Shown: positions 14,794 through 50,464, numbered from the stretch's first letter. The stretch: DNA of 64,000 bases from Pseudobdellovibrionaceae bacterium (GCA_020635235.1 JACKAF010000001.1:178380-242379), one strand, 5' to 3'. Notes: generated from the letters alone by a model not told the origin. Translations and numbers: made by a program.

Positions 14794-14952
14794 TAACGTT
14801 CCTCTAATGACCGGATAAGTCTCCTGATTATCCCAAGAAACTGTGGGGCAATTATGAAAAGACCTTCAAAGTCCACCCGTTGGACAACTTTTCCCTCATG
14901 CGCAAGACTGAGATAAATAGCCGATATTAGAGGTTTTAATCAAAAACCAGCC

Positions 14953-16455
14953 TTGAGGTGTGTGCTGAGCACACCCGCATTCGGAAAACCTAGGCCTGCC
15001 TGTCTAGCTACAAACGAAGCCATCGCTTACGCCGAAGCCATCGATTCGCTTCCGCTGGCCCACTCAACAACTGTGGCCCGTCCGATGACGCTCCCGCCGC
15101 GTACGAGAGCGTCAGAAGCCGTCGATCCGGAAGGCCATCTCACACCGTATCTCGAACTTGCCAATAGCCCAACGATCCACACGGAAACAAAGCGTCTCTA
15201 CGATGAAGCGTTTCGACTCATGGCAGAGCGCGATCTGGCGGCAAAGCGCTATGAGTTTCTAGCAGCAAAAAAATCGCCAGCGGATCCCGTTCAACACGCT
15301 AAAGATCTCGCAGCCGCAGAAGCCGCATACTTCCAAAAGCGCGCAGAGTACGATGCCAATCAAAGGCTCCTTGGACGCAACCGCGCCGCTCTTCGACTCA
15401 AAGAGCTGCACGACAAGGGAAAGATCCTTCAGGTCATCACCCAAATGGACGCGAGCCAAATGCATGCTCTCAACCACAGTGGTGAAAAAGATGTCCCGCC
15501 TTGGGGAGACGAAGCCCCTCCTTTGCTTCTGCTTTTGAAACCCGACACTGTTCTTACCCGTGTCTATGGACAGGACGCCGGTATGTTTGGGGGTTTTGCG
15601 ACTTTTCCTAGCCGCGCTGTTTACGAACCACGTACCAATGCGAGTGTGAACCGCAACCGCCTAGCCACGCCCCACGGCGACTATGAAAACACCCTCACCC
15701 ACGCAGTGAAGTTTACCTTTGCTAAACCACTTCAACCCGGGGAGGATCCGACAACTCAACCGGTACTGGCGTGGTACGGAACAACGGGGCCAATCTACCC
15801 CACCGGCGGTGAGGTGAGAGGCGCGGTGCGCGCACCGAACGGTGATCAATACGCGAGCGAAACTCTAGGGAGTCCCGGTGGTGGTGTCCAAGTCATTATC
15901 GGAAACGGAAGATGGAAGTACTACGCGGACGGATCCGAGCACAAAATTCCAGCGAGCATAAAGTGGCATTACGAAACCGCCCCGGGCGGCGAAAAAATAG
16001 TCGTTTTCGATTCCGGAAACCCTTATATGAACGAAAAGGACAACGTCATTCGGGACGTCACTATTGTTAGCAACCTACACGACATACAATCTCACATCAC
16101 GATGGATCTATTCCGCTTAAGACGCGAGCAGGTTTTTGCCGGCATCAGGGCGGGCGAGCCTTACACGGAATACCGCCAAACCACACGCTTACCCGAAGAC
16201 TGGGTCGATACACCGGAATATAGAGAGAACTACAATAGAATTTACCGAACGCTTGCAGCTATAAAGCAAACGAATATGGCGATCGTGCAAGCGGGCGCCC
16301 GCTTTCCCGAGGCAGAGGTACGTTCTGCCAGTCTAACTCTGCGCGACGTACAGATTCTGGAACAGGAACTAAGTGAGCTGAAACCCGCCGGAACTAGCTA
16401 TGCCCCGGTAAACGCGTCAGTAGGAGTGTCCACTGGCACCTACGTTCCCAATTAA
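14953..16455 (+). CDS. hypothetical protein (start uncertain)
   Basis: 500-aa ORF with TTG start. No signal peptide or known motif. Located between NHL copy 1 and cyclase copy 1. Confidence 0.45.
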   Translation: MRCVLSTPAFGKPRPACLATNEAIAYAEAIDSLPLAHSTTVARPMTLPPRTRASEAVDPEGHLTPYLELANSPTIHTETKRLYDEAFRLMAERDLAAKRYEFLAAKKSPADPVQHAKDLAAAEAAYFQKRAEYDANQRLLGRNRAALRLKELHDKGKILQVITQMDASQMHALNHSGEKDVPPWGDEAPPLLLLLKPDTVLTRVYGQDAGMFGGFATFPSRAVYEPRTNASVNRNRLATPHGDYENTLTHAVKFTFAKPLQPGEDPTTQPVLAWYGTTGPIYPTGGEVRGAVRAPNGDQYASETLGSPGGGVQVIIGNGRWKYYADGSEHKIPASIKWHYETAPGGEKIVVFDSGNPYMNEKDNVIRDVTIVSNLHDIQSHITMDLFRLRREQVFAGIRAGEPYTEYRQTTRLPEDWVDTPEYRENYNRIYRTLAAIKQTNMAIVQAGARFPEAEVRSASLTLRDVQILEQELSELKPAGTSYAPVNASVGVSTGTYVPN

Positions 16456-16507
16456 GGGTCCACATTGGGAAAACCCCTAAGAGTGCCGATACAGATTCCG
16501 AAGCCTT

Positions 16508-32400: not shown

Positions 32401-33919
32401 TGCGATCGTCCCGACGAGGGCCTTCGTTCACCGATTTGCAGCGTCCCAGCATACAGAGCGCTTTGTCGTTAAGATCCATCAGCTGATAGACGCGCGGCTC
32501 TTTCACTCCGAGATGATAGAGCGCCAAGCTTAGGTGTTTGGAATCGTCCCCCACGCCCTGCGACCAAACGATGGCCCGTTCCCATTCCACGGTTTCGCCC
32601 TTTCGGGGAAAACGAAAGGTTGGGATGTAAAGATCCTGTAGAAAGGCGGCATCAATCTTTCCGTCTTTGATGGCCTTATTCAGGCCGATGGCGGCTTCCA
32701 CTGCGGCTTTTCTGTAAGAGTCTGCGGTGCGGGTATCCCCTTCGTCCGAGGCTTCGGTGGCTTTTCTCACTGCCTCCACAAAATCATAAGCATAGACGAA
32801 GATTGGCTCTGCATCTCCCAGAGCGGTGTCGGATTTGTGGTAGCGCTGCGCGAGAGCGGTGTAGAGTCTTTGGCGTGGGCCCGTGAGTCCAAGTTTTTCA
32901 TCTGGGTCACGTGTTGGCAGATGCAAGATGAGATTTGCGGCCTTGCTGAGTTCCACCCAACGCGGATCATCGTCCATTTCGATGCTTTCCAGGGAGGGGA
33001 TCGTTCCAATCGCTGCGCTAAGGTCCTCGGTGCGCGCATCGTGACCGGAAAGAATGTGGGGCATCTGCGCCTGGACAAATTTCAGTTTCTCTACAGCGTC
33101 CAGAGTGGAGAACTTGGCCTTTTCCATTTCCTTATCTAAAAAAGATACGTGCTTGCTACTGCCGGCCGCGGCAATCTTGGGATCCACAGGAGTGCTGGCA
33201 ATCTTTTCCCCGGCGTCCGTTTCCTCAAGCTTTCCTTTTTTGAAACGTAAATGCCCTAACCCTTTCTCCACCATCGAGCGGCGCGTGGGGAGGTCCCACG
33301 CAAATATTGAGCGATCTCCAAATCCGAACTTCGATCGGGGTTCATTTTCAAGAGCGTCCTGTACGCTTAGCGCGGCCGTAGCGTCGAAATGGCGTTCATG
33401 GAGGACTTCCAAAGCGCGCGTGACCCCGAGAGCGTCATCTGCCATACCGGTTCGGGCTTGTGGCTCGGAATCGATCTGGTTCGAAATGACTTCGGTCGCG
33501 AGCAAGTAGGCGAGCTCATCTTGTGTCTTTACCGTCCGCACGGTTTGCGTGGTGAAGCCAATGAAGTTGTGTCCGTCGGTAACGAAGCTTTTGTGCCCGA
33601 GACGATCGCTATCCATCAGGAAAAAATGAACGGGGTGCTTTTTTAGGTCGTGATTGGGAAAGAGCCGCTTAAAGAGCTCTTGCATTTCGATGTCGAAGTC
33701 GCGCGCCACGGGGGATTGGAGATCCACCACACGGTGATTTTCCTGAAGGCGTTGAGACATCTCGCCACGCGCAAGCGCTTTGTCTTCATCGTCCGTAGGA
33801 TCTGCGTGCAGGGCAAAACTGAAGGCAAAAAACAGAAAAAATAGAATTTTAGCTAGGGACTTGATCCCGGCCTCCTCGTGCGTAATCCGTCGCTTGTTGT
33901 TATGCAAGGAGACGGCCAA
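29423..33919 (-). CDS. giant signal-anchored protein: degenerate M48-like peptidase segment plus C-terminal ABC1/UbiB-type atypical kinase domain
   Basis: 1498 aa. Hydrophobic N-terminal segment ILFFLFFAFSFALHA. N-terminal region FFLMDSDRLGHKSFVTDGHNFIGFTTQ...DELAYLLATEVIS resembles the M48 core, but HExxH is replaced by TEVIS. C-terminal LERMGPAETKLGQVLHSSPHTPHEIRDGM ... FDHDRHGAQLKIDG ... LFDFGAM match ABC1 kinase motifs. Confidence 0.65.
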   Translation of the reverse strand: MAVSLHNNKRRITHEEAGIKSLAKILFFLFFAFSFALHADPTDDEDKALARGEMSQRLQENHRVVDLQSPVARDFDIEMQELFKRLFPNHDLKKHPVHFFLMDSDRLGHKSFVTDGHNFIGFTTQTVRTVKTQDELAYLLATEVISNQIDSEPQARTGMADDALGVTRALEVLHERHFDATAALSVQDALENEPRSKFGFGDRSIFAWDLPTRRSMVEKGLGHLRFKKGKLEETDAGEKIASTPVDPKIAAAGSSKHVSFLDKEMEKAKFSTLDAVEKLKFVQAQMPHILSGHDARTEDLSAAIGTIPSLESIEMDDDPRWVELSKAANLILHLPTRDPDEKLGLTGPRQRLYTALAQRYHKSDTALGDAEPIFVYAYDFVEAVRKATEASDEGDTRTADSYRKAAVEAAIGLNKAIKDGKIDAAFLQDLYIPTFRFPRKGETVEWERAIVWSQGVGDDSKHLSLALYHLGVKEPRVYQLMDLNDKALCMLGRCKSVNEGPRRDDRTMDRLVIGADGEAVGLRKPGSGKAEELRRELFGEYVPELFQRAIHGDTEAHDILATASASSMGKSDGLIGLESIDKDFDLFMRVNMPILSDIPARSGAPAGQLIKKLSELIREDPDKWKPIVREFYMKGAFPDIAGRAGASYGEHGFDGLPLAHPLVSFALEDPHGLFPSRQDKVHVLGFTSALVPPLAPSGMPDVRQDTANLYLTTVRRQLGYEQPQTAEELYKLLESLGSRPGNFLAGLAAMEAEVFQVNHPKENLDPKRVLPYLHSEWREKTTSLEKRFSNYVKNRKDWPKSARPLLNEFTLFDKARLFPEDGVLRYKLIKDILDRLSEYSSPALRQGAIERIFRGPRVQDPKLRTRMLKLWAQSARERFGKDAGDSIYTETILAEADRAGTHLYAQDRHELFNHLANEVESQEDLSLKLGEARRGQGVETDLKMMGLNLSLRLVRANHQFRDELVDFLTRPMTARSLSDFGHALSLEQQLLTDGQAISTDEGYQRLAREIHQNFWASDMELRVGIIDELILPGDRRSDGEFEKAAERILNKVFPTGEKYSKEAHDLVRLYIEEIPKYQRSLVIAALMAAAQNTEQSRFKTTIGERLALILERMGPAETKLGQVLHSSPHTPHEIRDGMGRLKSEADVLTRWDLFKLHGDVIPASLKKRIKRVKRILGAASYYVTYEVELETVRPNGGVVLESRVISLLRPHAKKRAKTGFEVMKKMAQKQAEKNSAFKVLVSMIEQAERMADIETDWQIGKKQAEDAERLYHGATIKVGDGKPFEIHVARTLESGEGYRVMEQAKGVHFNDLPERTAKQKARKRDIARAYVALEISRILRGEKFDHDRHGAQLKIDGNKIYLFDFGAMATDDQLPTTEDRKVLADVLYEGVKSFKSELGTGDHAFGDYLFKLIQEKTEKGGASDYLIRVQKGVIALGDFFKYLQPGDLEDVVKGVIQEGQIHSDIVVELMPRIMTDMTKGSSLFDANSCNNAYVRISK

Positions 33920-34231: not shown

Positions 34232-34319
34232 TGGCGGAGAGAGAGAGATTCGAACTCTCGATAGGTTTCCCTATACACGCGTTCCAGGCGTGCGCCTTCA
34301 ACCACTCGGCCATCTCTCC
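34232..34319 (-). tRNA. tRNA-Ser (anticodon GGA), type II with long variable arm
   Basis: Reverse complement GGAGAGATGGCCGAGTGGTTGAAGGCGCACGCCTGGAACGCGTGTATAGGGAAACCTATCGAGAGTTCGAATCTCTCTCTCTCCGCCA folds as a cloverleaf. 7-bp acceptor stem, anticodon loop CTGGAAC, T-loop TTCGAAT, encoded CCA. Confidence 0.85.
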
Positions 34320-37813: not shown

Positions 37814-38479
37814 CTATTTTACACTTTTATTGCGGTTCTCCACAAATCCCCGCGCTGCAGAACCGGCGGCGATTCCGACCAGCATCAAAACCACCAAAGG
37901 TAGGTAGTGAAAAAAGAAGGCGTGCCAAGGGTTGTACATGCAGGCGAGCTGCATCAAGGATGAGGAAATAAGACCCGCGGCCAAGGCCGCGACGGCCCCT
38001 GCCCGTTTCCAGTCTTGGACGAGTCCCCGATAGAGAAAAAAGGCAAGCCAGGGCCAGGCGAGCAAGGCATAAAAGATAACCTCAAATTCGCACCCGCGCC
38101 GTGCCCCTTCCGCTGTTGTGGGCGTATCCGAAGAGAGCCCAAAGTAGAGGGCAGCGAGAAAAGCGCCGAGGGCCGCTCCTGAAAGCAAACGCAACCAACT
38201 GCCTCCGGTTTCACCCGGTACCGCGCTTCGAAAAAGATAAAGGAAACTCAAAAGCGAAAGCGCGAGGCCCGCTACCACCTCGACGCCCAGGTGCGGGTGG
38301 CGAAGCATGTCCTCCCACCACATCGCGCGGAAGGGCTGCACCAGAAACAGCATAAGAATCTGTGCTGCGAGAATTCCGATAAAACCAACAGCCGCCCGCA
38401 CCTTAGAAGGCCAAAGCCTCCCCGTCGGCTTGTAACTCTCCACGAGCTCTGAAATAAAAGTGTCCTTACTCTTCGGCAC
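37814..38479 (-). CDS. polytopic membrane anti-sigma factor, NrsF/DUF1109-like (putative)
   Basis: Immediately downstream of the ECF sigma gene. GTG start with SD GGAGAAAG overlaps the last sigma codons. About 6 TM helices and a size typical of NrsF-type anti-sigma factors. Confidence 0.5.
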   Translation of the reverse strand: MPKSKDTFISELVESYKPTGRLWPSKVRAAVGFIGILAAQILMLFLVQPFRAMWWEDMLRHPHLGVEVVAGLALSLLSFLYLFRSAVPGETGGSWLRLLSGAALGAFLAALYFGLSSDTPTTAEGARRGCEFEVIFYALLAWPWLAFFLYRGLVQDWKRAGAVAALAAGLISSSLMQLACMYNPWHAFFFHYLPLVVLMLVGIAAGSAARGFVENRNKSVK

Positions 38480-39059
38480 TATCTTTCTCCAGAGACTGAC
38501 TAAATAAATCACCCAAACTTTTGTACGCCCGAGAGATACGCTTGCGAAGCGCAGGCTCAGCTACCCCAACTCGCCTGGAGGCCTCGGCATAGCTTAGGCC
38601 CTCGACCTTGGTAAGCTGGATCGCTTCGCGGAGCGATTCGGGCAAGCGTCCGATGGCCTCTTGCAAGTGCGCAAGGGTCTCGCCCTTCTCCATGGAGTTC
38701 GCTCCGCCTTCCGCTTTTGTGACATCGGCCAGGTTATCGGGCAGTGCCTGCTCCTTGCGCCGCGATACACGACGGAAGTGATCCACGATCTTGAAGCGCG
38801 CAATCGCATACAGCCAAGGCTTAATGCTTCTACGAGTGTCGTAAGAAGCTAAAGATCGGTGGACGGCGATCAGAGACTCTTGGGTGACATCGTCCGCGTC
38901 GACCACCCCACGAAGTTTCTTTGAAAACAGATCCTGGAAAAACGGGTAAAGCTCTTGGAGGAGGCTCTCGTACGCCTGCCTGTCTCCCGCCTGACTCTGG
39001 GCCGCCAAACGCTGCCAGCGCTCGAAGATACTGGAATATTTGTCTTTTCCCGATGTCAC
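38466..39059 (-). CDS. ECF-type RNA polymerase sigma-70 family sigma factor
   Basis: Region 2 (DADDVTQESLIAVHRSLASYD...KPWLYAIARFKIVDHFRR) and region 4 (EAIQLTKVEGLSYAEASRRVGVAEPALRKRISRA). GTG start. Confidence 0.8.
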   Translation of the reverse strand: MTSGKDKYSSIFERWQRLAAQSQAGDRQAYESLLQELYPFFQDLFSKKLRGVVDADDVTQESLIAVHRSLASYDTRRSIKPWLYAIARFKIVDHFRRVSRRKEQALPDNLADVTKAEGGANSMEKGETLAHLQEAIGRLPESLREAIQLTKVEGLSYAEASRRVGVAEPALRKRISRAYKSLGDLFSQSLEKDSAEE

Positions 39060-40967: not shown

Positions 40968-42494
40968 CTATTCGAACAAAGAGGCCGCCGGAACCACCTT
41001 AATCTGTGCGGCCTCGACACCCACATCATAAACGGCGATCTTCTTGTCTTCTTCCGAAATCTCTGCAGGGACCTCAACTCCGTCCTTGTAAGTTATCTCG
41101 CACTTGTCGCTTGAGATCTCTTTGGAGAAGGCATCCGTGTCCTTGGTGACTACCACCATTTGCAGACTCTCCGGCTGAACATACTTCTTGATCGCTGCGT
41201 TCACTTGCTCGTGCGTCAGCTCACTGACTTTGGCCTGAAGGTTCGCGAGGTAATCCCCGGTAACCCCATAGAACTCAGAGTCGATAGAGATCCCCAAACG
41301 CTTTTCGATACCGGCAGCGGTAATCGGTATATTGCCGATGAGATATTTTTGAACGCGTTTGAATTCCTCTTCGGTTATTCCCTCGTTGGCGAGCTTTGTC
41401 GTCTCACGGGCTAGGAGTCGCAGCAGAAAACACCCGTTTTCGGCCGTCGTGGGACGTCCCCAAACCGTGAAGGCCTGCTGGCTGCGCGCGACCTGGGTTT
41501 GCTCCGAAAGATAGCGGCCGCCGTTTGGAAATTCCTCAATATAGGAATAGGTGCCGTAGTTCATGCTGCGGATCTCACGGACAATGCGCATCAAACGGCC
41601 GACAAAATCACGGTGCTTGCCGTAAGCATTGTTGGCGAGAAACATCGCAGGAAAATCAGCACTCGCGCGAGTCAAGCTCGTCGGGTGTCCCAGATGCACG
41701 CCGGTTCCTTCGAAATCACCCTTCACCAAAGTAAGGGTACGCGCCGTATGCGCTGGAGCGGCCGGCAAAGTGGCTTTGGCAGACTCACCCTCTGGCAAAC
41801 TATCATTGAAGACCTTTACAGCAGCCTCAAGATCCCCACCGATAACACCGGTCACACCCACCGTCAGTCGTTGCTTGGTGTAGAGTTTCGCGGCAAATTC
41901 CTTTACATCTTCAATAGTCGTCGCTTCCACCCCGGCCAGTGTGCCCTCCACGACGTGAGAGTATGGGTGTGCAGGGCCATACATCACTCGCTCCAAGGCG
42001 GCTTTGCCGAGCTCTTCCTGATCCTGCTGCGGCCACTTTTGGGTAAGAGAGAGCTTAGTCTCCTCTTTGATGCGCTTGAATTCGACCGGATCAAGAGCGG
42101 GCGCTTGCAGCACCTGGCGAAGAAGCGCAAAGACACGGTCTCCATTCTCCGCAGTTGCCATTACAGAAAACGAGGTTTGCTCTTTGTTCACGGAAACGGA
42201 AATATCTGCCGCCAAGGGGAAGAGTACCTTCTCCAACTCGGGTCGAGTCAAAGCGGGCAAATCTCCCAGCGCTTTCACACCGCCTTCACGAACCAGACGC
42301 GCCGTCAGATTTGCAAGACCCTGACGGGCCTGCGGATCATCTGCCGAACCAGCGCGGAACGTAATGTTGAAAACGGTCAGCGGTAAATCGTTGTTTTTCT
42401 CCAAGAGCACCTTCCCCAAACAAGATGGACTATAAAAAACGCTCCCGGCTAAAGCCAGAACCACAAAGCCCAATCCAAATAGCTTCTTGTTCAT
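40968..42494 (-). CDS. M16 family peptidase-like protein (probable non-catalytic subunit)
   Basis: Signal peptide. Overall M16 (insulinase-like) pattern but no HxxEH motif. Paired with the catalytic paralog upstream. Confidence 0.65.
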   Translation of the reverse strand: MNKKLFGLGFVVLALAGSVFYSPSCLGKVLLEKNNDLPLTVFNITFRAGSADDPQARQGLANLTARLVREGGVKALGDLPALTRPELEKVLFPLAADISVSVNKEQTSFSVMATAENGDRVFALLRQVLQAPALDPVEFKRIKEETKLSLTQKWPQQDQEELGKAALERVMYGPAHPYSHVVEGTLAGVEATTIEDVKEFAAKLYTKQRLTVGVTGVIGGDLEAAVKVFNDSLPEGESAKATLPAAPAHTARTLTLVKGDFEGTGVHLGHPTSLTRASADFPAMFLANNAYGKHRDFVGRLMRIVREIRSMNYGTYSYIEEFPNGGRYLSEQTQVARSQQAFTVWGRPTTAENGCFLLRLLARETTKLANEGITEEEFKRVQKYLIGNIPITAAGIEKRLGISIDSEFYGVTGDYLANLQAKVSELTHEQVNAAIKKYVQPESLQMVVVTKDTDAFSKEISSDKCEITYKDGVEVPAEISEEDKKIAVYDVGVEAAQIKVVPAASLFE

Positions 42495-43885
42495 TGTACT
42501 TTCCCTCTCAGCGTTACTGTAGTCCGCTTGGTATTGACCAAATACTTCTTGGCGAATGCCGCCACATCGGACGGCTGTACTTCGTCAATTCGTTGAAACA
42601 CGCGATCGAGTACCTCGAAGTCGGCCTCAAAGTTTGTGTACCAATTGATTTGGCCTGCCAAAGAGTCAGGTGCACTGAACCACTGGGTCAACGCGGCATT
42701 ACGCGCGCGCATTTTTGCCGACGTCAGCTCCGCCGTGTCTACCGGCGAATTTTTGATTTTCTCCATCTCGTCCAAAACTGCCTGCTTGAGTTCCGCTTCT
42801 TTGTCTTTACCGGCCTCCGAAAGGACCAATTCGACCTTCCACAGCCCCGGATCAACGGTCTCAAAGGGGAATGCAGAAACAGAATCTAACCAGCCTTTTT
42901 CAAAGCGATAGATTTTCTGGAACTCAGATGTCTCCGAGAAGTAAACGTCGGCGATGAGCTTGAGCGCGGCGTTTTCAACGTCTTTGGTACCAAAGGCAGG
43001 TACTTTGTGTGCAATTGCTATTCGTGTAGGTGTTGCAGACGGAAACTCAACGGCTTTGGAACGTTCATCGTTCTGCTCAGACTCCGGCGTTACCTCCTGC
43101 GGGAGTTCGGCAGGGTTTTCCCAGGCTCCGAAATTGGCGCGGATAAGCTCCAGCGCTTTATCGAATTCAATATCTCCCACTAGTACGATCCGCACGTTTG
43201 AAGGACGGTAGTAGCGCTTAAAGAACGGCCACACATCCTGGTACCGATTCGGGTACTGCTCAATGTCCGCCTTGTAACCCAAAGTCGTATGACCGTAGGT
43301 GTGGGACTTATAGGCAAGTTCCTGCATGGTCTCTTCCATCAGGAAGCCGGGATCGGACGCGCTTTTTAGGTATTCACCCATCACCGCGCCGGCCTCAGCC
43401 TTCAGCGCGGCTTCGGAAAAATCCAAGTTTTGAAAACGATCGGCCTCGGCCGCCAGGATTTTGTCCAGATACCGAGAGGCGACTTTGCCGTGGTAATTGG
43501 TCATGTCGTACCAAGTCCAAGCGTTGTAACTCACGCCGTTTTCCGTATAAATCGCACCAAATTCCTGCGAGCTAAGGGTTTTTGTTCCCCGGAACATCAG
43601 ATGTTCAAAGAAGTGTGCAAAACCGCTCTTGCCTTTCTCCACTTCGTTTCTCGAGCCGACTCGCACACCCAGCTGGTACGCGACAACACCGGTGCTCGGG
43701 TATTTCACCAAAAACACCTTCAGCCCGTTCTCCAAAGTCGCGGTCTGGTGCGGAAGAGTGAGAATGCTCTTAGATGCTCGGTTCACGTTCGCTCCCATCC
43801 CGTTTGTAGAATTCTTGGTGCAGGCAACCAGCAGACATAGGCCTAGGCTCGCTACGCCGAAAAACAGACTAGATTTTCCCATCAT
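42491..43885 (-). CDS. M16 family zinc peptidase (pitrilysin-like, catalytic)
   Basis: Signal peptide. Inverted zinc motif HFFEHLMFRGT (HxxEH) with downstream E residues. 4-bp overlap with the partner gene. Confidence 0.75.
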   Translation of the reverse strand: MMGKSSLFFGVASLGLCLLVACTKNSTNGMGANVNRASKSILTLPHQTATLENGLKVFLVKYPSTGVVAYQLGVRVGSRNEVEKGKSGFAHFFEHLMFRGTKTLSSQEFGAIYTENGVSYNAWTWYDMTNYHGKVASRYLDKILAAEADRFQNLDFSEAALKAEAGAVMGEYLKSASDPGFLMEETMQELAYKSHTYGHTTLGYKADIEQYPNRYQDVWPFFKRYYRPSNVRIVLVGDIEFDKALELIRANFGAWENPAELPQEVTPESEQNDERSKAVEFPSATPTRIAIAHKVPAFGTKDVENAALKLIADVYFSETSEFQKIYRFEKGWLDSVSAFPFETVDPGLWKVELVLSEAGKDKEAELKQAVLDEMEKIKNSPVDTAELTSAKMRARNAALTQWFSAPDSLAGQINWYTNFEADFEVLDRVFQRIDEVQPSDVAAFAKKYLVNTKRTTVTLRGKVQ

Positions 43886-43982
43886 TTGCTCCTGAAGCTA
43901 TAATCACCGCATACCGGAATCCCGAAGGGATGGGAAGCTCGCAAACAACAGGAATTAAATATCTGTAATTACTAGTATTTTT

Positions 43983-44006
43983 AATTGTGCCCGACTCGGC
44001 ACAATT
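43983..44006. promoter_or_regulatory. perfect 9-6-9 inverted repeat AATTGTGCC-N6-GGCACAATT in a divergent promoter region
   Basis: Read directly. A further ACAATT half-site lies 8 nt downstream. Located between the M16 operon and NHL copy 2. Confidence 0.35.
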
Positions 44007-44055
44007 CCCCTACAATTGCGTGTCATACTCAGAGGACTAATCTGAGGCACGTTGA

Positions 44056-47000
44056 TTGTTCCAAAAAAGCTTACAAATTCTCAAATCCCTCTCCTTTGTA
44101 TGTCTGATTATGGCCAGCCCTGCCTGCCTTAAGCTCAACGATAGCGGTGCGAGCTCAGGCGGCGACGGCGAAGACTTGGCGAGTATTCCCACCTCTGGCA
44201 CGGGCCGCAATGCGACCGTTATCGCCACGGCGACGAACAGTTTGGCCCGGTGTAGTTTCACCCAAATGGGTCTCGTGGAATTTTCCCTAGAGTGCGCGGT
44301 CGTAGTCGTCCAGAACAATCAGGAGTTGGTAGCCAACGAAGCTGAAAATGTTGAGTTCAACTGGGGTACGCCCAGTCGCGTTTCCGGCGCGGAAATTCTC
44401 ACTTCGACCTGCGAATCCGGTTACAAGAACTTGAGCCACAATTGCGATCTCGTATTAGACGAGCCCCGAACGACTGAAGTCGAAGTCGGCTTGTTGCGAA
44501 CAAACACCGTAACGACAGAAGCGGATGAGTTATCCGCACTCGTTTTGCTCGCCTATTCAGTTTCTTCCTATGGCTTGGTTCCGCAAATACCGATCGCGTT
44601 CAACCCTGGCCCGCGCGGACTGCTCGGTTTGAGCGGCAAAGACCGATCGGAAATGGGCTTCGCCACCCGAAGTTTTGTGGCGGACAACATCTCAGTCGAT
44701 GAGATCAAGTCGCAGTGCTGGGACGGCACCCACAAGATCTCTACTGAAGGCTACATCTATTCCCGAAACGCCACTACCGGACGAGCGGAAATCTTCGCGG
44801 GTACCGCGAACACGCTAAACACTTTGGATTATCCGAACACCGAACACCGCCTGCGCGTTCACTTTGAGCCGGGAGATCTCTTCCTGGCGTGTAGTCCCGC
44901 CAAACCCAATCTCCTCTATGTTCTAGTCCGTCAAAAGGGTGTCGACCCCAACGGCTATTACGTTCCGGATGCGCTCCTAAAGATATATAAAATAGAGAAC
45001 GACATGGTTTCGGTGGTCGTTCGCGCTAATCCCGGCGAAGGCGAGTACAACTGGTTAACGCCCCCCCTTGTCGAGGCCGCGGTGAACGCCAACCTCGATT
45101 CTTTAGGCGGCGGTGCCGTTGGCGACGATGGTGCACTTTATTTTTCCGAACCCGGACGCGGTATCGTGCGAAAGCTGGACGCCGACGGTGGCAACATCCA
45201 CCTTTACGCCGGCGCTGGCCCTTGTGCCACCTACAATCCGGATCCTGATGAAAATGGAAACGATCAAAACCCTCCGTGGTGCACGTTTACCGGAAATGGT
45301 TATCTCGATGGCCCCATCAGCCAATCTTTGCTCAGCTCGCCCAAGGGCTTGGCTTATCACAACGGCAAACTCTACATTGCCGATGAAATGAATCGCCGGA
45401 TCCGTGTCGCGGAAAATGGAATGGTTTCGACATTCGCTGGCGGTGGCACTCAAACCACTGACGGTGCGAGCCCGTTGGCCGCGCAGTTGGGTTACCTTCA
45501 AGATGTCAGTGTTGACTCTGCCGGTACTATTTATATTGCCGACTCCGATGTGAACCGGATCAAGAAGATTGAAAATAACCAGGTCATAACGATTGTTGGC
45601 TCAGGCGACGAAGGAAACCCTTCGCACGGAGACAGCGCTCTTTCGGCTGCCGTCTTTCATCCCTTTTCAGTGGTGTCGGGTAGCCCTTCACAGGTTTATT
45701 TTGCTTTTCAGTTGTTTGAACAAGTCTCGCCGGCTCCAAACGGGAGGCGAGTTTTTGGTTTGAATGAAAGCAACGAGCTCAAAGTTGTTTTTGGCGAGGC
45801 CACCATAGATTTGAATTTGAGCCCAGATACCCGCTTTGCGCAGTTAAGAGAAGCGTCTGGCATCGCCTTTCACCCGAATGGAGACATTTACTACACGGAC
45901 GCCCAGAACCATCTCGTCATGCGGATTCACAAAGGAAGTAGAGGACAGGACGTCGTCAGTCGATTTGCGGGCATTGGGCTAAGTGGCTGCACGAATGTTC
46001 TCGGTGGCAATCCGGCTACCCTAGTATTGAATGAACCGACCGGTATCGCCATTACCGAAAACGGTGATATTTTTGTGAGCGACACAGGAAACCATCGTAT
46101 CCTCAAATTCCACGAAGGTTTGTTTGTGTACAACATCTCTCGGGCGACTGGACTAAATTGTAATGAGAGTCCGTTTGCTCCATACTACAATGGCTATAAC
46201 GAGCCCCTGTACGACGAAGAAGGAAATGAAATTCCGCAACCTCCAGCGGTTTGCGGCATCTACACGCCGTACCCGACAGCCATGACGGCAGACCCCTCTG
46301 GCAACGTCTTTGCTATCTTGGGCGCTTCCCAGGAAATCGTAAAAATCCCTGCTGAAGGCGCCCCTCGCTACTACGTAGGTGGGTGCGATTCCATTGCAAC
46401 TCTCCCCACGCGTGAAAAGCTCATCGGAATTACTTCCGACGGTGATGGAAACATTTACGTTTCGGACGCCGAGACTTCAAAAATCCACCGAATTGGAAGC
46501 GATAACGTCGGCGTCACCATCGCCGGTACCGGAACGCGTGGAAGTGCAGGCGACGGAGGCCCGGCTCTCAGCGCTCAATTTGAGTACCCCGCCGCACTGG
46601 CGTACGACAATGATCGCCTTTATGTTGCAGACGGCGGAAGCGCCATCGTGCGCATGCACATGGCTGATGGTGCGGCCAATCCCGACTTCAGCGATATCCC
46701 ACCGGGGTATGACATATCTTCTGGAAGCACGCGGATCCGTGTGATCGAAACTCAACAAGATACAACGCTTCGCGTTAGTTTGCTTGTGGGTGGCCGCCTG
46801 AATAACACTTGCGGAACAGGTACTGTCCAGGGTTCCAGTGAATCCTCAAACCTATTCGATCAATTGAGTGCCAGTTTGTCCAACTACTGCCGCGCACGCA
46901 TCCGAGCGCTTGCCGGCAAAAACACGTGCGACGCAGAGCAGAACCAGACTTCGCTCGTTTTCGCGCAAAGCTTTTCTTCCGTCTACGAGAACGAAATCCT

Positions 47001-47064
47001 CGAAGCCTTCTCCCGTAACGCGCCGTCCTCAAACGTCATCAAGGTGGATCGACAGTGCTTTTAA
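44056..47064 (+). CDS. giant NHL-repeat secreted lipoprotein (copy 2) with Cys-rich C-terminal domain
   Basis: 1002 aa. Signal peptide with ASPAC. NHL repeats (YIADSDVNRIKKI, FVSDTGNHRILKF, YVSDAETSKIHRI). C-terminal region aligns with copy 1 and ends ...KVDRQCF. Confidence 0.7.
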   Translation: MFQKSLQILKSLSFVCLIMASPACLKLNDSGASSGGDGEDLASIPTSGTGRNATVIATATNSLARCSFTQMGLVEFSLECAVVVVQNNQELVANEAENVEFNWGTPSRVSGAEILTSTCESGYKNLSHNCDLVLDEPRTTEVEVGLLRTNTVTTEADELSALVLLAYSVSSYGLVPQIPIAFNPGPRGLLGLSGKDRSEMGFATRSFVADNISVDEIKSQCWDGTHKISTEGYIYSRNATTGRAEIFAGTANTLNTLDYPNTEHRLRVHFEPGDLFLACSPAKPNLLYVLVRQKGVDPNGYYVPDALLKIYKIENDMVSVVVRANPGEGEYNWLTPPLVEAAVNANLDSLGGGAVGDDGALYFSEPGRGIVRKLDADGGNIHLYAGAGPCATYNPDPDENGNDQNPPWCTFTGNGYLDGPISQSLLSSPKGLAYHNGKLYIADEMNRRIRVAENGMVSTFAGGGTQTTDGASPLAAQLGYLQDVSVDSAGTIYIADSDVNRIKKIENNQVITIVGSGDEGNPSHGDSALSAAVFHPFSVVSGSPSQVYFAFQLFEQVSPAPNGRRVFGLNESNELKVVFGEATIDLNLSPDTRFAQLREASGIAFHPNGDIYYTDAQNHLVMRIHKGSRGQDVVSRFAGIGLSGCTNVLGGNPATLVLNEPTGIAITENGDIFVSDTGNHRILKFHEGLFVYNISRATGLNCNESPFAPYYNGYNEPLYDEEGNEIPQPPAVCGIYTPYPTAMTADPSGNVFAILGASQEIVKIPAEGAPRYYVGGCDSIATLPTREKLIGITSDGDGNIYVSDAETSKIHRIGSDNVGVTIAGTGTRGSAGDGGPALSAQFEYPAALAYDNDRLYVADGGSAIVRMHMADGAANPDFSDIPPGYDISSGSTRIRVIETQQDTTLRVSLLVGGRLNNTCGTGTVQGSSESSNLFDQLSASLSNYCRARIRALAGKNTCDAEQNQTSLVFAQSFSSVYENEILEAFSRNAPSSNVIKVDRQCF

Positions 47065-47111
47065 GCGCTGGCCGTTGAGTACCGATAAGATCCTGAAACA
47101 ACTTAATTTTA

Positions 47112-49454
47112 GTGAATAAGACAAAGTCATTTTGGAACCGCTTTGCCCCCCGGGACATTTCCTTGCAGCGGGGGCTTGTGATCGTAGCAGTCTGCACGGC
47201 GGCGTTTTCAGGTTTGTACTCCTCACAATGGGGAGAGCGCATCGAACGACGAGCCGCACATCCTATCGCGTTTCAGATCCGGCATTTGCTCGGCATGGAT
47301 CCGAAGATCGATCCGCGCCTTAAGGTGTACGCCTTTGATGACTCCACACTTAAGTACGTCGACGAAGAGGATCTCACCCTCAAGCAGTGGGCCGACACGT
47401 TGGAAAGTTTCATAAAGGCGAATCCGAAGGCAGTGATTATTCCGAAATTGTTTGGGACTCCGAGCGGCCGAGAGTATGCAAAACATTTCGAGAAAAGAAT
47501 TCAGCAACTCCCGTTCCCCGTCATCACCGCGGCTGTGTTGACTCACGACGCTTCCCGGGCACCCCTAAGAATGGAGCAAGATTTTTCAGACCTGGAAAGC
47601 CTAGCGGCGGCTGGAAAATTTCAGGAAACTCTACAATCGCTGACGCTTCCCAAAGCAAGCGATCTGAATCCCATAGGACCTCACCCAACTATTGAAAAAG
47701 CCTTCTCACACGTTGGCCATATCAATTACTATGACGATTTCTTCTTTGAAACTTTTGTCCGAGTTAATGAAAAAAAAGCTCTGCCTGCGGCGCCTCTGCT
47801 GCTGGCAGACACTCTATATTTTGACGACGGGGATCTTTATGCGGACGGAACAGAAATACCGACCGACAGCCGTGGTCGAGTTCTCATTAACATGGGAGAC
47901 CCCTCAAAGTACTACGAGCGGATCTACGCGCTGAAAAGCGTGATCAAAAGAGCGTCCCAAGGAGAGCAGGTCACCACATTACCGGATAACTCCGTGGTAC
48001 TTCTCCTTTTTATGTTTTCGCCAAACGTAGACATGACACAGTCGCCTTTTGGTCCCATCCCTGAGGGCCTGGTTTTAAACGCATTCGTCAATAGCGTCCT
48101 GACAAAACAGTGGGTTCGCTTTTTGCCTATGGGTGTTTTCTGGGTGGCGGTTTTCTGTTTAATCGGTGGCGCTCTAGGGCTGTACTTTCAAGGAAGTCAG
48201 TTTTGGATCACGCTGGCGGCAGGGACCTTTTCCATTTTCGTTGCCGGCTGCGCGGCCTTTTCCTATGGGTCTATCCATACTCCATGGTTTTTCTCCGGTC
48301 TGGGACTCTTGACCACCGGGGCGACGGTATTTCTAGAAAAGTATCGGCTAATCGACAAAAAAACTCGTCGTGTTCGGGCTGCATTGGACGGCTTGGTTCC
48401 TCAGCGACAACTTCTCGAAATAATCAAACAACCCCTTGCAGAATTAACCAAACCCTCAGAACACGTCACTACAATCATGTTTATCGACGTGATCGGTTTT
48501 TACCTAACGGCTGAGACGCAAGCACCGGCAAACGTTTTCCTCTCACTGAAAGACCTGCTTTCCCGCTTAACAAACACCATTCATAGTTTTGATGGAATCG
48601 TCGACAAAACCACTGGAGACGGGATGCTGTGCTTTTTTGGTTATGACTACGTAACCGGAAAAGTAGATCCAGAGCACGCCAATAAAGCGCTGGCCTGCGC
48701 TATCGAGATCCAGCGAACAAGCCTGGAACTCAATCTAAAGGCGCACGAAAATCACAAAGCCCTCTTCCCCTTGCGCATCGGACTCAATACGGGGAACGTT
48801 TTTATCGGTGATTTGGGGAACTCTCAGCGAATGGATTTCACCATCATCGGTCATGCTATTAATTTTGCGAAAAGGCTTGAAAGCGCCTGCGAAGACTACT
48901 GCGTAATGTTAGGCGCCTCCACTTATGACTTGATTTCCCTGGAGCCCGAGGGAGTGGGAATCAAGAAGAAGATGTTGCAGATCAAGCACTACCAGGAACT
49001 GATTGAAGGGTACGAAGTAGATCCACTGGCCCAACTGCAGGAACAACGGCAGGCCGCACTGAGCGCCTACTGGAACTTCGCACACAAGGCTCAGCACAGT
49101 CCACGCTGGGAAGTACCAGAGAGCGTCCGAATAGAGGCCATCACAAAAACCCACGGCAAAGGTCGAGTCGTTAATTTTTCCTTAGGTGGAATGGCAATCG
49201 AACTGGATCAGTACCTCGCCCGCGGAGTAATTCTCGAGTTTCATATCGAATCCCAATCACCAGAACTAATCGAACAGCTAAAGAAGATCGGACTGCCTTC
49301 TTTGGTGGGAGAAATCCGCTGGGGGCGTCCCAAGAGCAACGGATTATACCTGCATGGGGTCGCGCTGCAAAATCTTACGGAAGATCAATCTAAGGAAATC
49401 CAACGTATTCTCCGCTCGACGGTGACCTCCACAACGCTCCGAAAAACGGGCTAA
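47112..49454 (+). CDS. CHASE2 sensor, class III adenylate/guanylate cyclase, C-terminal PilZ-like domain (copy 2)
   Basis: GTG start. Same architecture as 16508-18790 (RLKVYAFDD..., IMFIDVIGF...GDGMLCFFG). C-terminal VNFSLGGMAIE is a canonical PilZ DxSxGG-type motif. Confidence 0.75.
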   Translation: MNKTKSFWNRFAPRDISLQRGLVIVAVCTAAFSGLYSSQWGERIERRAAHPIAFQIRHLLGMDPKIDPRLKVYAFDDSTLKYVDEEDLTLKQWADTLESFIKANPKAVIIPKLFGTPSGREYAKHFEKRIQQLPFPVITAAVLTHDASRAPLRMEQDFSDLESLAAAGKFQETLQSLTLPKASDLNPIGPHPTIEKAFSHVGHINYYDDFFFETFVRVNEKKALPAAPLLLADTLYFDDGDLYADGTEIPTDSRGRVLINMGDPSKYYERIYALKSVIKRASQGEQVTTLPDNSVVLLLFMFSPNVDMTQSPFGPIPEGLVLNAFVNSVLTKQWVRFLPMGVFWVAVFCLIGGALGLYFQGSQFWITLAAGTFSIFVAGCAAFSYGSIHTPWFFSGLGLLTTGATVFLEKYRLIDKKTRRVRAALDGLVPQRQLLEIIKQPLAELTKPSEHVTTIMFIDVIGFYLTAETQAPANVFLSLKDLLSRLTNTIHSFDGIVDKTTGDGMLCFFGYDYVTGKVDPEHANKALACAIEIQRTSLELNLKAHENHKALFPLRIGLNTGNVFIGDLGNSQRMDFTIIGHAINFAKRLESACEDYCVMLGASTYDLISLEPEGVGIKKKMLQIKHYQELIEGYEVDPLAQLQEQRQAALSAYWNFAHKAQHSPRWEVPESVRIEAITKTHGKGRVVNFSLGGMAIELDQYLARGVILEFHIESQSPELIEQLKKIGLPSLVGEIRWGRPKSNGLYLHGVALQNLTEDQSKEIQRILRSTVTSTTLRKTG

Positions 49455-50464
49455 GGATCCAACTGTTCCAACCACTCCCGCAACCACTGAACTGCCCTTT
49501 CATCTACTAGTTTTGTGCCAATTGGGGGCATTCGATTAAAGTCGGTGGATTCCATTCGGTAGAGCACCGCGCTTTTATCAGGCTCATGGCCTTTCAGTCT
49601 AAAGGTGGATTCCATTCCGGGAATTTGAAAAAAGAGGGTCGGCTGATTCACGGCAGTCAGGAATGCCGGGGCCGCTTGCTCAGTGGTCATTTCTACGTCG
49701 TGTCTCATCCAAAGGTTTGTCCATCCCGCACTGCCTTGCGGGTTGTGGCAATGTCCGCAGTTGCCGTGCAGATAGCCCATCGAGACCCGTGCTTCAGCTG
49801 TGGCGGCATGAATTCGGGGCGCAGGATTTAGCTCCGTTTCCTGTCTATCTATCAGACCTTCCCTTGCCAGCATAAGCAAGTCGAGTCCTACAGAATTGGA
49901 AGGCATACTCAGCGGATCGCGATCGGTAGAAAGCTGAAGCGCGCCGAACCCCAAAACCGGATCGCCCCCTCTGCGGTGGCAGGTCAGACAATCAGCGCGG
50001 CGGGGGATATCATGAGAAACACCGGGAGCGACGGGATAGTGGTTGGACAAGCCTCCTGACGGCGCCAATACAGCGTCGTTTTCACCCTCCTCCCAGACGT
50101 ACGATCCAAATTCCCATTCGCCCTCCGCTACTTTCTCTATGAGACGGGTCTCCACACGGTGCAGCCCACTATCAGTATTGTAAGCAAACTCCTTCCAGAT
50201 CTTGGTGCCCAAGGGGAAAGCCCAGTGGTTGATGTCAGCACCCTCGCCCTGAGTCCGAATGGTCTGCGCCGGAGGCAAGTAGATCCATCTTCTCTTTTCT
50301 GCCCCGTCGGTCCATAGAGGGTACTGAGGATCATAAAATCTGTTCTCCGGTTTTACTTCTTTGGTTGAAATATTTGTGTAGAGACCTGTTTCAGACAGTC
50401 GTAGACTTTGCGCCTGCGCCGATAAAGCAAGGACCAAGAATGAAATACTGATGCGTAGGCGCAT
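49451..50464 (-). CDS. secreted di-haem c-type cytochrome (putative)
   Basis: Signal peptide MRLRISISFLVLALSAQAQS. Two CxxCH motifs (CLTCH, CGHCH). 4-bp convergent overlap with cyclase copy 2. Confidence 0.55.
   Translation of the reverse strand: MRLRISISFLVLALSAQAQSLRLSETGLYTNISTKEVKPENRFYDPQYPLWTDGAEKRRWIYLPPAQTIRTQGEGADINHWAFPLGTKIWKEFAYNTDSGLHRVETRLIEKVAEGEWEFGSYVWEEGENDAVLAPSGGLSNHYPVAPGVSHDIPRRADCLTCHRRGGDPVLGFGALQLSTDRDPLSMPSNSVGLDLLMLAREGLIDRQETELNPAPRIHAATAEARVSMGYLHGNCGHCHNPQGSAGWTNLWMRHDVEMTTEQAAPAFLTAVNQPTLFFQIPGMESTFRLKGHEPDKSAVLYRMESTDFNRMPPIGTKLVDERAVQWLREWLEQLDP

Follow-up and report, generated by a model that had tools for sequence, protein, structure and literature searches.

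Lipoproteins such as RcsF and NlpE are co-sensors of membrane sensors, and in the PilZ fusions BcsA, Alg44 and MCP-PilZ an enzyme or a receptor is gated by c-di-GMP. QseG, also a lipoprotein, targets the sensor kinase QseE in the periplasm (PMC6075780). In S. meliloti, signal perception by the CHASE2 cyclases CyaD1, CyaD2, and CyaK needs the outer-membrane protein NsrA, and their output runs through Clr, a regulator of the CRP family (PMC13001267). In Bdellovibrio, cAMP activates the c-di-GMP phosphodiesterase Bd1971 (PMC6717892).

In an uncultured Bdellovibrionota bacterium, the gene of a predicted lipoprotein (NHL2) adjoins that of a membrane cyclase (CYC2) within the 64-kb stretch of DNA analyzed here (the window). 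As in the S. meliloti systems, a class III membrane cyclase whose periplasmic domain is CHASE2-like is accompanied by a separate envelope protein, to which gene order would assign the accessory role, and the predicted output is cAMP. Unlike NsrA, which is an outer-membrane beta-barrel, NHL2 is a putative NHL-propeller lipoprotein; in addition, no PilZ domain has been reported for the S. meliloti cyclases, in contrast to CYC2, and the organisms are unrelated. The likeness to QseG, RcsF, and NlpE lies in a lipoprotein that is encoded beside, or tied to, an inner-membrane sensor and that here would likewise act on its periplasmic domain. However, those lipoproteins are small and their sensors are histidine kinases or IgaA, whereas this locus combines a nucleotide cyclase as output with a multi-domain propeller lipoprotein of about 1000 aa.

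The catalytic domain of CYC2, with its Asp pair, Lys/Thr, and Asn/Arg, resembles those of CyaB from P. aeruginosa (3r5g) and CyaC from Spirulina (1wc0), but the CYC2 sensor is CHASE2-like and both of these enzymes lack a C-terminal PilZ domain. This domain is modeled with the canonical PilZ fold, as in BcsA, Alg44, and MCP-PilZ, and no published fusion of a class III cyclase with PilZ was found in the literature searched. Like Bd1971, CYC2 is predicted to link the cAMP and c-di-GMP networks, but with the cross-talk reversed, c-di-GMP acting on cAMP synthesis.

Gene Structure and Domains of NHL2 and CYC2

The two genes have the ORFs, strand, domain content, and spacing that the original prediction had given them (Table 1). 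CYC2 starts with GTG. The start of NHL2 was placed at ATG 44110 by automatic gene callers, but TTG 44056 is better supported, since it is preceded at 8 nt by GAGG and opens a signal-peptide-like frame that is kept in the ortholog L004 (76–84% identity), in which ATG 44110 is not conserved. From its sequence, NHL2 is predicted to be exported and lipid-anchored; its lipobox, A-S-P-A-C (S-P-G-C in the L004 ortholog), has an atypical Pro at -2 when compared with [LVI][ASTVI][GAS]C.

Table 1. Features of the two gene pairs and of their surroundings in the window.
Feature	Position	Strand	Remarks
9-6-9 inverted repeat AATTGTGCC-CGACTC-GGCACAATT, candidate operator	43983..44006	.	Perfect; core TGTGC-N8-GCACA
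Predicted leader hairpin pairing the GAGG Shine-Dalgarno (44044-47), up to the TTG start	44012..44059	+	RNA fold
NHL2, predicted lipoprotein, 1002 aa	44056..47064	+	Pfam NHL/TEN_NHL; AF2 model
NHL2 signal peptide Cys24	44125-44127	+	
NHL2 Ig-like beta-sandwich, residues 62-165	44239-44550	+	
NHL2 beta-propeller blades, about residues 226-860	44731-46635	+	
NHL2 Cys-containing C-terminal domain, residues 861-1002	46636-47061	+	Ends ...RQCF
NHL2-CYC2 spacer, 47 nt	47065..47111	+	Length and most bases conserved in L004
CYC2, membrane receptor-type class III cyclase with C-terminal PilZ, 780 aa	47112..49454	+	Pfam; AF2 model
CYC2 TM1	about residues 16-40	+	
CYC2 periplasmic CHASE2-like domain, residues 43-335	47238-48116	+	
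CYC2 TM2-4, residues 336-412	48117-48347	+	
CYC2 cyclase domain, residues 448-615	48453-48956	+	
CYC2 PilZ domain, residues 656-770	49077-49421	+	
NHL1, paralogous lipoprotein, 1134 aa	11389..14793	-	Canonical lipobox LTAC; ends ...RDCF
Lineage-specific insertion of ~1.56 kb between NHL1 and CYC1	14920..16491	+	Orphan 500-aa ORF 14953-16455
CYC1, paralogous CHASE2-cyclase-PilZ, 760 aa	16508..18790	+	Canonical RxxxR, NxSxxG

In Pfam, NHL2 matched NHL (PF01436, 100.6 bits) and TEN_NHL. Its AF2 model (pLDDT 62) showed the blades to be four-stranded, and the best Foldseek matches of the model were the propellers of teneurin, NHLRC2, and LRP6, with Pizza propellers also found. The conserved Cys residues are 66, 80, 119, 130, 221, 279, 919, 945, 958, and 1001. 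When defined by their own N- and C-domains, the NHL2-type lipoproteins formed 96 clusters among 1.84 billion representatives; members of this family have Cys-rich N- and C-terminal domains, and a lipobox-like motif was detected in 38 of 45. NHL propellers in general are common in enzymes and adhesins.

A match to Guanylate_cyc (PF00211) was obtained for CYC2 (61.9 bits, cut-off 21.9) and for 35/35 members of the cyclase family. The solved sequences closest to its catalytic domain were CyaB (PDB profile match, 1.3e-36) and CyaC, on which this domain of the AF2 model (pLDDT 76) was superposed with a TM of 0.89 and an rmsd of 2.2 Å. The catalytic residues of CYC2 are D459, K499, D503, T577, N584, and R588. 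The metal-binding Asp pair and the transition-state residues N584 and R588 are present in both CYC2 and its paralog CYC1, and over 64 family members they were conserved in 64 (D459), 63 (D503), 62 (N584), and 64 (R588) sequences. Adenylate-specific class IIIb enzymes follow the rule of a Lys plus Thr/Ser (or Asp) as substrate-selecting pair. This pair is K499 and T577 in CYC2 and K and S in CYC1, and in the family the first position is occupied by K (56/64) or R (8/64) and the second by T (61/64) or S (3/64). CYC2 is thus probably a catalytically competent class III adenylate cyclase (IIIb-like, Lys/Thr), with cAMP as the expected product.

For the sensor domain, CYC2 gave no match to Pfam CHASE2 (PF05226) at E ≤ 0.01, one precomputed match being marked as weak, and CYC1 reached 25.1 bits, below the cut-off of 26.3; the domain was matched by 31 of 35 family members, with a best E of 1.8e-15. 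The topology of CYC2 is of the CHASE2 type, with one TM, an extracytoplasmic domain of ~300 aa, three TM helices, and an output domain. A hydropathy scan resolved TM1 and, beyond the periplasmic domain, two further TM segments, and the AF2 model contains helices at residues 18–37, 341–358, 362–386, and 393–425 and an alpha/beta domain at residues 60–335.

The C-terminal domain of CYC2 matched PilZ (PF07238) with 33.7 bits (cut-off 22.5), and its model has a six-strand barrel (strands 674–752) followed by a C-terminal helix (757–768). The [D/N]xSxxG motif is intact in both copies (N688-F-S-L-G-G693 in CYC2, N-F-S-R-S-G in CYC1). The RxxxR motif is intact in CYC1 (R-E-E-S-R) but not in CYC2 (Q661-H-S-P-R665), where the first Arg is replaced by Gln; at this position R is found in the L004 ortholog and Q in L005. 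Because of this replacement, CYC2 probably has a lower affinity for c-di-GMP than CYC1, and its binding of c-di-GMP is doubtful, while the PilZ domain of CYC1 looks canonical. Both motifs were fully canonical in 39 of the 64 family members.

Comparison With the Paralogous Pair

The window was confirmed to contain a second, paralogous pair, NHL1 and CYC1. Full-length identity was 27% between NHL1 and NHL2 (E 5e-95) and 28% between CYC1 and CYC2 (E 4e-93). The two pairs had been attributed to a duplication with divergence, giving different sensory inputs. They are paralogous, but not recent duplicates: CYC1 and CYC2 belong to different deep branches of the family, and CYC2 shares more identity with cyclases of other genomes (39% with L006, 36% with L007) than with CYC1. 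As for the sensory inputs, the alignment of the two copies hints weakly at divergence, the sensor parts of the cyclases being the most diverged (identity of 22% in the periplasmic, 14% in the transmembrane, and 40% in the catalytic part), along with the Gln in the RxxxR motif of copy 2. The insertion in copy 1 is flanked by a 7-bp direct repeat, GCCGATA, and an 11-nt imperfect inverted repeat. In the sister MAG HKST-UBA01, the orthologs of NHL1 (70% identity) and CYC1 (66%) are directly divergent and 145 nt apart.

Recurrence of the Gene Pair and Proposed Function

The cyclase family is Bdellovibrionota-wide, and 64 full-length loci were fetched. Genes of the NHL family and CHASE2-cyclase-PilZ genes were neighbors in six or more separate lineages, with tandem pairs as in copy 2 (L004, L005, L006, and L007), divergent pairs (L029 and L087), and a convergent pair (L091/L092). 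When the window was compared with L006 and L007 (36–39% cyclase identity), only the pair was in common and the flanks differed. In other cyclase clades the neighboring gene encodes a lipoprotein particular to the clade or, in a single clade, a solute-binding protein that is exported; these clade-specific partners are an LVIVD propeller, SBP_bac_5 plus F4, F6, F11, and F39, and lipoproteins of ~230 aa. A lipobox-like signal was present in 45 of 117 genes adjacent to cyclases versus 55 of 525 genes at least three positions away (odds ratio 5.3, p 6e-12, with a crude pattern and shared ancestry ignored).

The same pairing in distant relatives suggests that the lipoprotein may pass an envelope signal to the cyclase. 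We give even chances to a reading of the locus as an envelope-to-cAMP sensing module, with NHL2 as co-sensor, CYC2 as receptor cyclase, and an output modulated by PilZ. NHL2, once exported and lipid-anchored, would use its Ig-like domain, NHL propeller(s), and disulfide-rich C-domain to bind or monitor a periplasmic or cell-surface target, and would then act on the periplasmic CHASE2-like domain of CYC2 as an accessory co-sensor, presumably by physical interaction, a coupling proposed only from gene neighborhood. CYC2 would respond with cAMP synthesis, which the C-terminal PilZ domain may further modulate, either via c-di-GMP or by protein contact.

The association of the two families is not obligate. 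An NHL-family neighbor was found at only 7 of the 64 cyclase loci and, among six further NHL-family members sampled, three had no cyclase within 6 kb, two were contig-limited, and one was adjacent, so that three of the four informative contexts lacked a cyclase. These counts favor an alternative in which the genes are independent neighbors, NHL2 serving the envelope in some role of its own, as an adhesin, a hydrolase or lyase, or a binder of prey or matrix, with no direct signaling link to the cyclase, and the adjacency reflecting shared gene-order ancestry or loose co-regulation of envelope genes. The occurrence of such propellers in enzymes and adhesins also fits an independent job, and the NHL and cyclase trees, both star-like when built by neighbor joining, showed no visible congruence. 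We regard this alternative as unlikely, since two rare families recur side by side across those lineages in three orientations without conserved flanks, both NHL-family genes of the window sit beside a cyclase of the same family, and every other cyclase clade likewise has an adjacent gene for a lipoprotein or an exported binding protein.

The same neighborhood evidence would also fit a coupling in the reverse direction, because gene order gives no direction. The cyclase-PilZ protein would then control the NHL lipoprotein, much as LapD controls LapG, with c-di-GMP on PilZ or local cAMP shifting the periplasmic domain so as to retain, release, or activate its partner. The fusion of a cytoplasmic nucleotide-binding PilZ domain to a protein whose periplasmic part is large is consistent with this possibility, which we nevertheless consider quite improbable. 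The catalytic residues are strictly conserved family-wide, which argues that nucleotide synthesis upon input is the selected function, and the partners vary by clade while the cytoplasmic part is constant, as would fit variable inputs and a common output. Moreover, CHASE2 is known as a cyclase input domain (PMC13001267).

The sensing module can tentatively be extended to the whole family, a step to which we give rather less than even chances: CHASE2 would be a docking receptor for clade-specific lipoproteins (NHL, LVIVD, orphans) or solute-binding proteins, and PilZ would gate cAMP by c-di-GMP. If so, CHASE2 would sense via interchangeable protein partners and not a small ligand, and a c-di-GMP-conditional cAMP synthesis, together with cAMP-activated Bd1971-type c-di-GMP phosphodiesterases, would complete a loop of mutual control.

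Upstream Region and Co-transcription

The predicted 9-6-9 inverted repeat was found, and it is perfect. A search of the window that tolerated 3 mismatches returned this site alone, no second copy being present in the 64 kb, and 0 matches were obtained in 100 shuffles. The repeat had been placed in the promoter region of the pair and does lie upstream of NHL2, 50 nt from its start. However, it also lies ~100 nt upstream of the start (43885) of a divergent M16 peptidase gene (42491–43885, minus strand), and since the intergenic region is common to both genes, it is not the promoter region of NHL2 alone. In L004 the half-sites TTGTGC/GCACA are kept, with 5 substitutions in the central 8 nt. The palindrome looks like an operator for a repressor or an activator.

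CRP sites have the consensus TGTGA-N6-TCACA, that is, TGTG-N8-CACA. The palindrome, TGTG-N10-CACA, is 2 bp longer than canonical and does not fit an operator of the CRP/FNR type. No CRP-family gene was detected among the window ORFs scanned (about two thirds of the larger ORFs). A -10-like TACAAT is located at 44011–44016, and the RNA of 43960–44060 was predicted to fold with -29.1 kcal/mol (z -3.4). With respect to L004, the leader hairpin shows one compensatory change (A-U to G-C) and two one-sided changes, a covariation that is weak evidence because only two sequences were compared.

In the window, no promoter-like or terminator-like site was found in or near the NHL2-CYC2 spacer and no inverted repeat within it, and the spacer of L004 is also 47 nt long. 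The co-transcription suggested in the original prediction, from a promoter beside the palindrome, is plausible. Separate regulation, in which the palindrome would control the M16 operon or NHL2 alone and CYC2 would have its own promoter without forming an operon, is somewhat unlikely in view of this conserved spacer devoid of such sites. It is favored by the position of the repeat upstream of both starts and by the spacers of other loci with the same tandem order, where a 45-nt insertion with a hairpin (L005) and terminator-like hairpins (L006 and L007) were found. Additionally, the two partners are encoded on opposite strands in copy 1, L029, and L091, and therefore no shared transcript is possible there. 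Separate regulation would bear only on transcription and leave room for a functional coupling of the two proteins.

The Gene Pair and Its Paralog

The original prediction described an NHL protein gene and a CHASE2-cyclase-PilZ gene in tandem on one strand; both ORFs were found as described, 47 nt apart, and are listed with their neighbors in the table below. Its domain calls were also correct, with NHL, class III cyclase and PilZ recognized by Pfam and the CHASE2-like domain by homology, and a second paralogous pair (copy 1) is present in the same window.

Features of the two gene pairs and their surroundings (window coordinates)
Feature	Position	Strand	Characteristics
NHL1 gene (copy 1)	11389-14793	-	full-length identity to NHL2 27%
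Insertion, ~1.56 kb	14920-16491		orphan 500-aa ORF at 14953-16455; splits the divergent NHL1-CYC1 pair
CYC1 gene (copy 1)	16508-18790	+	full-length identity to CYC2 28%
M16 peptidase gene	42491-43885	-	divergent neighbor of the NHL2 gene
NHL2 gene (copy 2)	44056-47064	+	1002 aa, TTG start; Pfam NHL 100.6 bits and TEN_NHL
CYC2 gene (copy 2)	47112-49454	+	780 aa, GTG start; Pfam Guanylate_cyc 61.9 bits, PilZ 33.7 bits

The start of the NHL2 gene was placed at ATG 44110 by the gene callers. GAGG (44044-44047) stands upstream of the TTG at 44056, from which translation yields MFQKSLQILKSLSFVCLIMASPAC, a signal-peptide-like stretch with Cys24 at its end. The frame from TTG 44056 is kept in the ortholog of MAG BC2.86 (locus L004; MFRNYFQILRFLSLLLAVLASPGC) and ATG 44110 is not. 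This ortholog consists of two overlapping ORFs of 716 and 324 aa (L004 813-3807), which reflects a frameshift or else a mistake in the assembly. The GTG at 47112 was favored over the shorter NCBI model of the cyclase (758 aa) because the N-terminus MxxxxSFWxR is common to paralogs and distant homologs.

Exact matches to CYC2 were a protein from a 'Bdellovibrionales bacterium' MAG and a Logan contig; two other MAGs of the Bdellovibrionota have orthologs with 82-84% identity and the same gene order. A 337-aa diheme c-type cytochrome-like gene (49451-50464, - strand; TIGR03806 163 bits, under its cut-off) is convergent with CYC2, overlapping its stop by 4 nt, and is kept 3' of the cyclase in the orthologous loci L004 and L005.

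When one genome per species was scanned, 64 full-length CHASE2-cyclase-PilZ relatives were recovered, nearly all in genomes labeled Bdellovibrionota/Oligoflexia, several of which carry more than one copy. The identity of CYC2 to the cyclases of two other genomes (39% to L006 and 36% to L007) was higher than to CYC1 (28%), and the two copies of the window are therefore old paralogs. Thus, of the proposed duplication with divergence, the paralogy and the divergence held, but the duplication is not recent. Alignment of the two cyclases located their variable parts in the periplasmic domain (22% identity) and TM2-4 (14%); the catalytic domain is 40% identical and PilZ 31%. NHL1 and NHL2 were 29-35% identical domain by domain, and NHL1 carries large insertions. 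This pattern fits the idea that the copies may feed different inputs into a common output. Co-phylogeny was attempted with neighbor-joining trees of the NHL and cyclase proteins, both of which were star-like with long branches.

The NHL Protein Family

Ordinary NHL proteins aligned only to the central ~50% of NHL2, and a fold search with its AF2 model (pLDDT 62, moderate) returned generic NHL/YWTD propellers only. The model comprises an Ig-like sandwich (residues 62-165) followed by propeller blades that span roughly residues 226-860; residues 168-224 and the C-terminal domain (last 140 residues) are absent from it. The two ends of the protein (N-terminal ~250 and C-terminal ~140 residues) both contain conserved cysteines and are common only to copy 1, the orthologs and cyclase-adjacent NHL proteins of other genomes. 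A word-index search with the N-domain alignment found a single fragment, and in 1.84 billion representatives a full HMMER search with the N-domain profile hit 96 clusters at E<=1e-3. Proteins of 800-1000 aa with the N-domain at the N-terminus made up nearly all of them. In the 45 members examined, a lipobox-like motif was detected in 38 and the C-domain in 43, most with a ...PCx end. These proteins make up a small and specific family, exported and probably lipid-anchored and disulfide-bonded.

Association of the NHL and Cyclase Families

In the copy 2 clade, an NHL-family gene was located directly upstream of the cyclase and on the same strand at every locus with a visible upstream side (the window, L004, L005, L006 and L007), while the remaining flanks differ. 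L029, a locus of another cyclase clade, has its NHL-family gene in divergent orientation to the cyclase. The same arrangement was found in the sister MAG HKST-UBA01 (L087), where orthologs of NHL1 (70% identity) and CYC1 (66% identity) are directly divergent with 145 nt between them. Sampling from the NHL side revealed a third orientation, in that the NHL-family member P0181 and a full-length cyclase of the family converge across a gap of 9 nt. Within 6 kb of three other members there was no cyclase, and contig ends limited the view for two more. The association of these two rare families is therefore frequent, in three orientations and at least six lineages, but not obligate.

About 1 kb downstream of P0173, an NHL-family member without an adjacent cyclase, a 357-aa protein with weak PilZ and faint HATPase_c matches is encoded (L084 9786-10859).

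Other cyclase clades have partners of their own. A 500-aa LVIVD-repeat propeller lipoprotein is encoded directly upstream of the cyclase at five loci (L049, L053, L056, L057 and L066). About 16 Oligoflexus-type loci, including L022, L024, L027, L033, L035, L037, L038, L043, L051 and L063, carry a divergent SBP_bac_5 binding protein together with a downstream 450-aa lipoprotein. Moreover, families F6, F11 and F39 and ~230-aa proteins are conserved neighbors of other clades, the conserved partner families of which measure about 170, 230, 360 and 400 aa. All of the clade partners possess a hydrophobic N-terminal stretch followed by a lipobox-like Cys, except for the SBP_bac_5 proteins, which have a signal peptide without lipobox. 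With a crude pattern, 45 of 117 cyclase-adjacent genes were lipobox-positive versus 55 of 525 genes at least three positions off (odds ratio 5.3, p 6e-12, shared ancestry ignored); this is a lower bound, since the pattern has known false negatives. These data suggest that the periplasmic domain of the cyclase family may generally work with a partner protein encoded next door.

A large neighbor was also seen beside a CHASE2 sensor with a different output. At L003 (2385-8696), a CHASE2-SpoIIE phosphatase (P0005), 28% identical to the sensor half of the cyclase, is preceded on the same strand by an fn3-containing 1326-aa protein.

Domains of the Cyclase

The catalytic set of CYC2 is complete: D459 and D503 for metal binding, K499 and T577 as the substrate pair, and N584 and R588 for the transition state. 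Among the 64 family members these residues are nearly invariant. The nearest solved sequences were the class IIIb adenylate cyclases CyaB (P. aeruginosa) and CyaC (Spirulina), and in the AF2 model (pLDDT 76) the catalytic domain superposed onto CyaC with a TM score of 0.89 and 2.2 Å. From the Lys/Thr substrate pair, the product is predicted to be cAMP.

In the model, a single N-terminal TM helix leads into the alpha/beta periplasmic domain (residues 60-335), which is followed by three TM helices, the cyclase and PilZ. No Pfam CHASE2 match was obtained for CYC2 at E<=0.01, and CYC1 scored just under the Pfam cut-off. The periplasmic domain was named CHASE2-like by homology, because 31 of 35 cyclase family members match CHASE2 (best E 1.8e-15).

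The PilZ part was modeled as the beta-barrel and helix typical of PilZ, and was scored for R-x-x-x-R and [D/N]xSxxG. Both motifs are present in CYC1, and they are fully canonical in 39 of the 64 family members. At the R-x-x-x-R position CYC2 has Q-H-S-P-R; the Gln is shared by ortholog L005 and the Arg is kept in ortholog L004. With Gln for the first Arg, the PilZ domain of CYC2 would presumably bind c-di-GMP more weakly. RWEVP (copy 2) and RFTLR (copy 1) were ruled out as the RxxxR motif, as the 64-sequence alignment puts R-x-E-x-R-W four residues upstream.

Regulatory Elements

The inverted repeat AATTGTGCC-CGACTC-GGCACAATT (43983-44006), previously assigned to the promoter region of the NHL2 gene, proved perfect, but lies in a 170-nt divergent region shared with the M16 peptidase gene. 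It was the sole match in the 64 kb with three mismatches allowed, no shuffle matched, and no second copy beyond chance was found in the window, for instance upstream of copy 1. In L004, TTGTGC/GCACA is retained and the center has diverged without compensatory change, a conservation that fits better with a protein-binding site than with an RNA stem. The spacing TGTG-N10-CACA is 2 bp over that of the canonical CRP site. With the TACAAT at 44011-44016 as a putative -10 element, the palindrome would cover the -35 and spacer region. Additionally, a leader hairpin (44012-44059; fold z -3.4) pairs the GAGG Shine-Dalgarno of the NHL2 gene, with one compensatory A-U to G-C change in L004, weak evidence as it comes from two sequences only. 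No riboswitch or other known RNA was detected by Rfam in the leader and spacer.

Neither a sigma-70-like promoter nor an intrinsic terminator was predicted in the 47-nt spacer and its surroundings, and the spacer is conserved in L004. The L005 spacer (1660-1751) contains a 45-nt insertion forming a long-stem hairpin, and those of L006 (4093-4110) and L007 (3998-4016) have terminator-like hairpins, whereas the window spacer has none. Co-transcription of NHL2 and CYC2, as originally proposed, is plausible in the window.

Proposed Function

CHASE2 is a widespread extracytoplasmic sensor domain, and to our knowledge the mechanism by which it perceives signals is largely unknown; its best-studied case, that of S. 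meliloti, points to an accessory protein of the envelope. The function that we regard as most likely, with confidence about evenly balanced, is a lipoprotein co-sensor together with an adenylate cyclase that has CHASE2 as receptor and PilZ as modulator. NHL2 would act as the co-sensor for CYC2, CYC2 as the receptor with cAMP as output, and PilZ would modulate the cyclase, linking c-di-GMP to cAMP. Without real coupling, the locus would amount to two ordinary neighboring genes, one of the envelope and one of signaling.

The nearest characterized system is that of the S. meliloti CHASE2 cyclases: activation requires the outer-membrane protein NsrA, and signaling proceeds via Clr (PMC13001267). 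Lipoprotein co-sensors, QseG-QseE for example, are a mechanistic analogue (PMC6075780). In Bdellovibrio, Bd1971 is a cAMP-activated c-di-GMP phosphodiesterase and joins the two networks in the direction opposite to that predicted for the cyclase-PilZ protein (PMC6717892). The separate domains are already recognized by database annotation. In the literature searched, no CHASE2-lipoprotein pair was described, nor any class III cyclase-PilZ fusion, although domain-architecture catalogues beyond it may list one.

The main points of the locus are the family-wide partner pattern and the predicted link from c-di-GMP to cAMP. Across the phylum-wide family, the adjacent lipoproteins, one kind to each cyclase clade, offer concrete, testable partner pairs for CHASE2. 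From the fusion, direct cross-talk from c-di-GMP to cAMP is predicted for predatory bacteria and related ones, as a mirror image of Bd1971.

Insertion in Copy 1 and Other Genes of the Window

The ~1.56-kb segment between NHL1 and CYC1 is missing from HKST-UBA01; as the orthologs there are directly divergent, the 500-aa ORF of the window is an insertion. Its edges carry a 7-bp direct repeat, GCCGATA (14920-14926 and 16485-16491), and an 11-nt imperfect inverted repeat (14927-14937 and 16470-16480). The insertion looks transposon-like, with short repeats and a protein unlike any known transposase family. The ORF had no Pfam or NCBIfam match; this, the lack of similarity and the comparison with the sister MAG led to its rejection as a diverged LVIVD-type partner.

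The window also encodes a dockerin-repeat protein just 3' of CYC1 (18895-19875), an FG-GAP repeat protein (22118-23656), a 1498-aa protein with an ABC1 kinase-like domain (29423-33919), one tRNA (34235-34319, - strand), and an ECF sigma factor with an NrsF-type anti-sigma (37814-39059).
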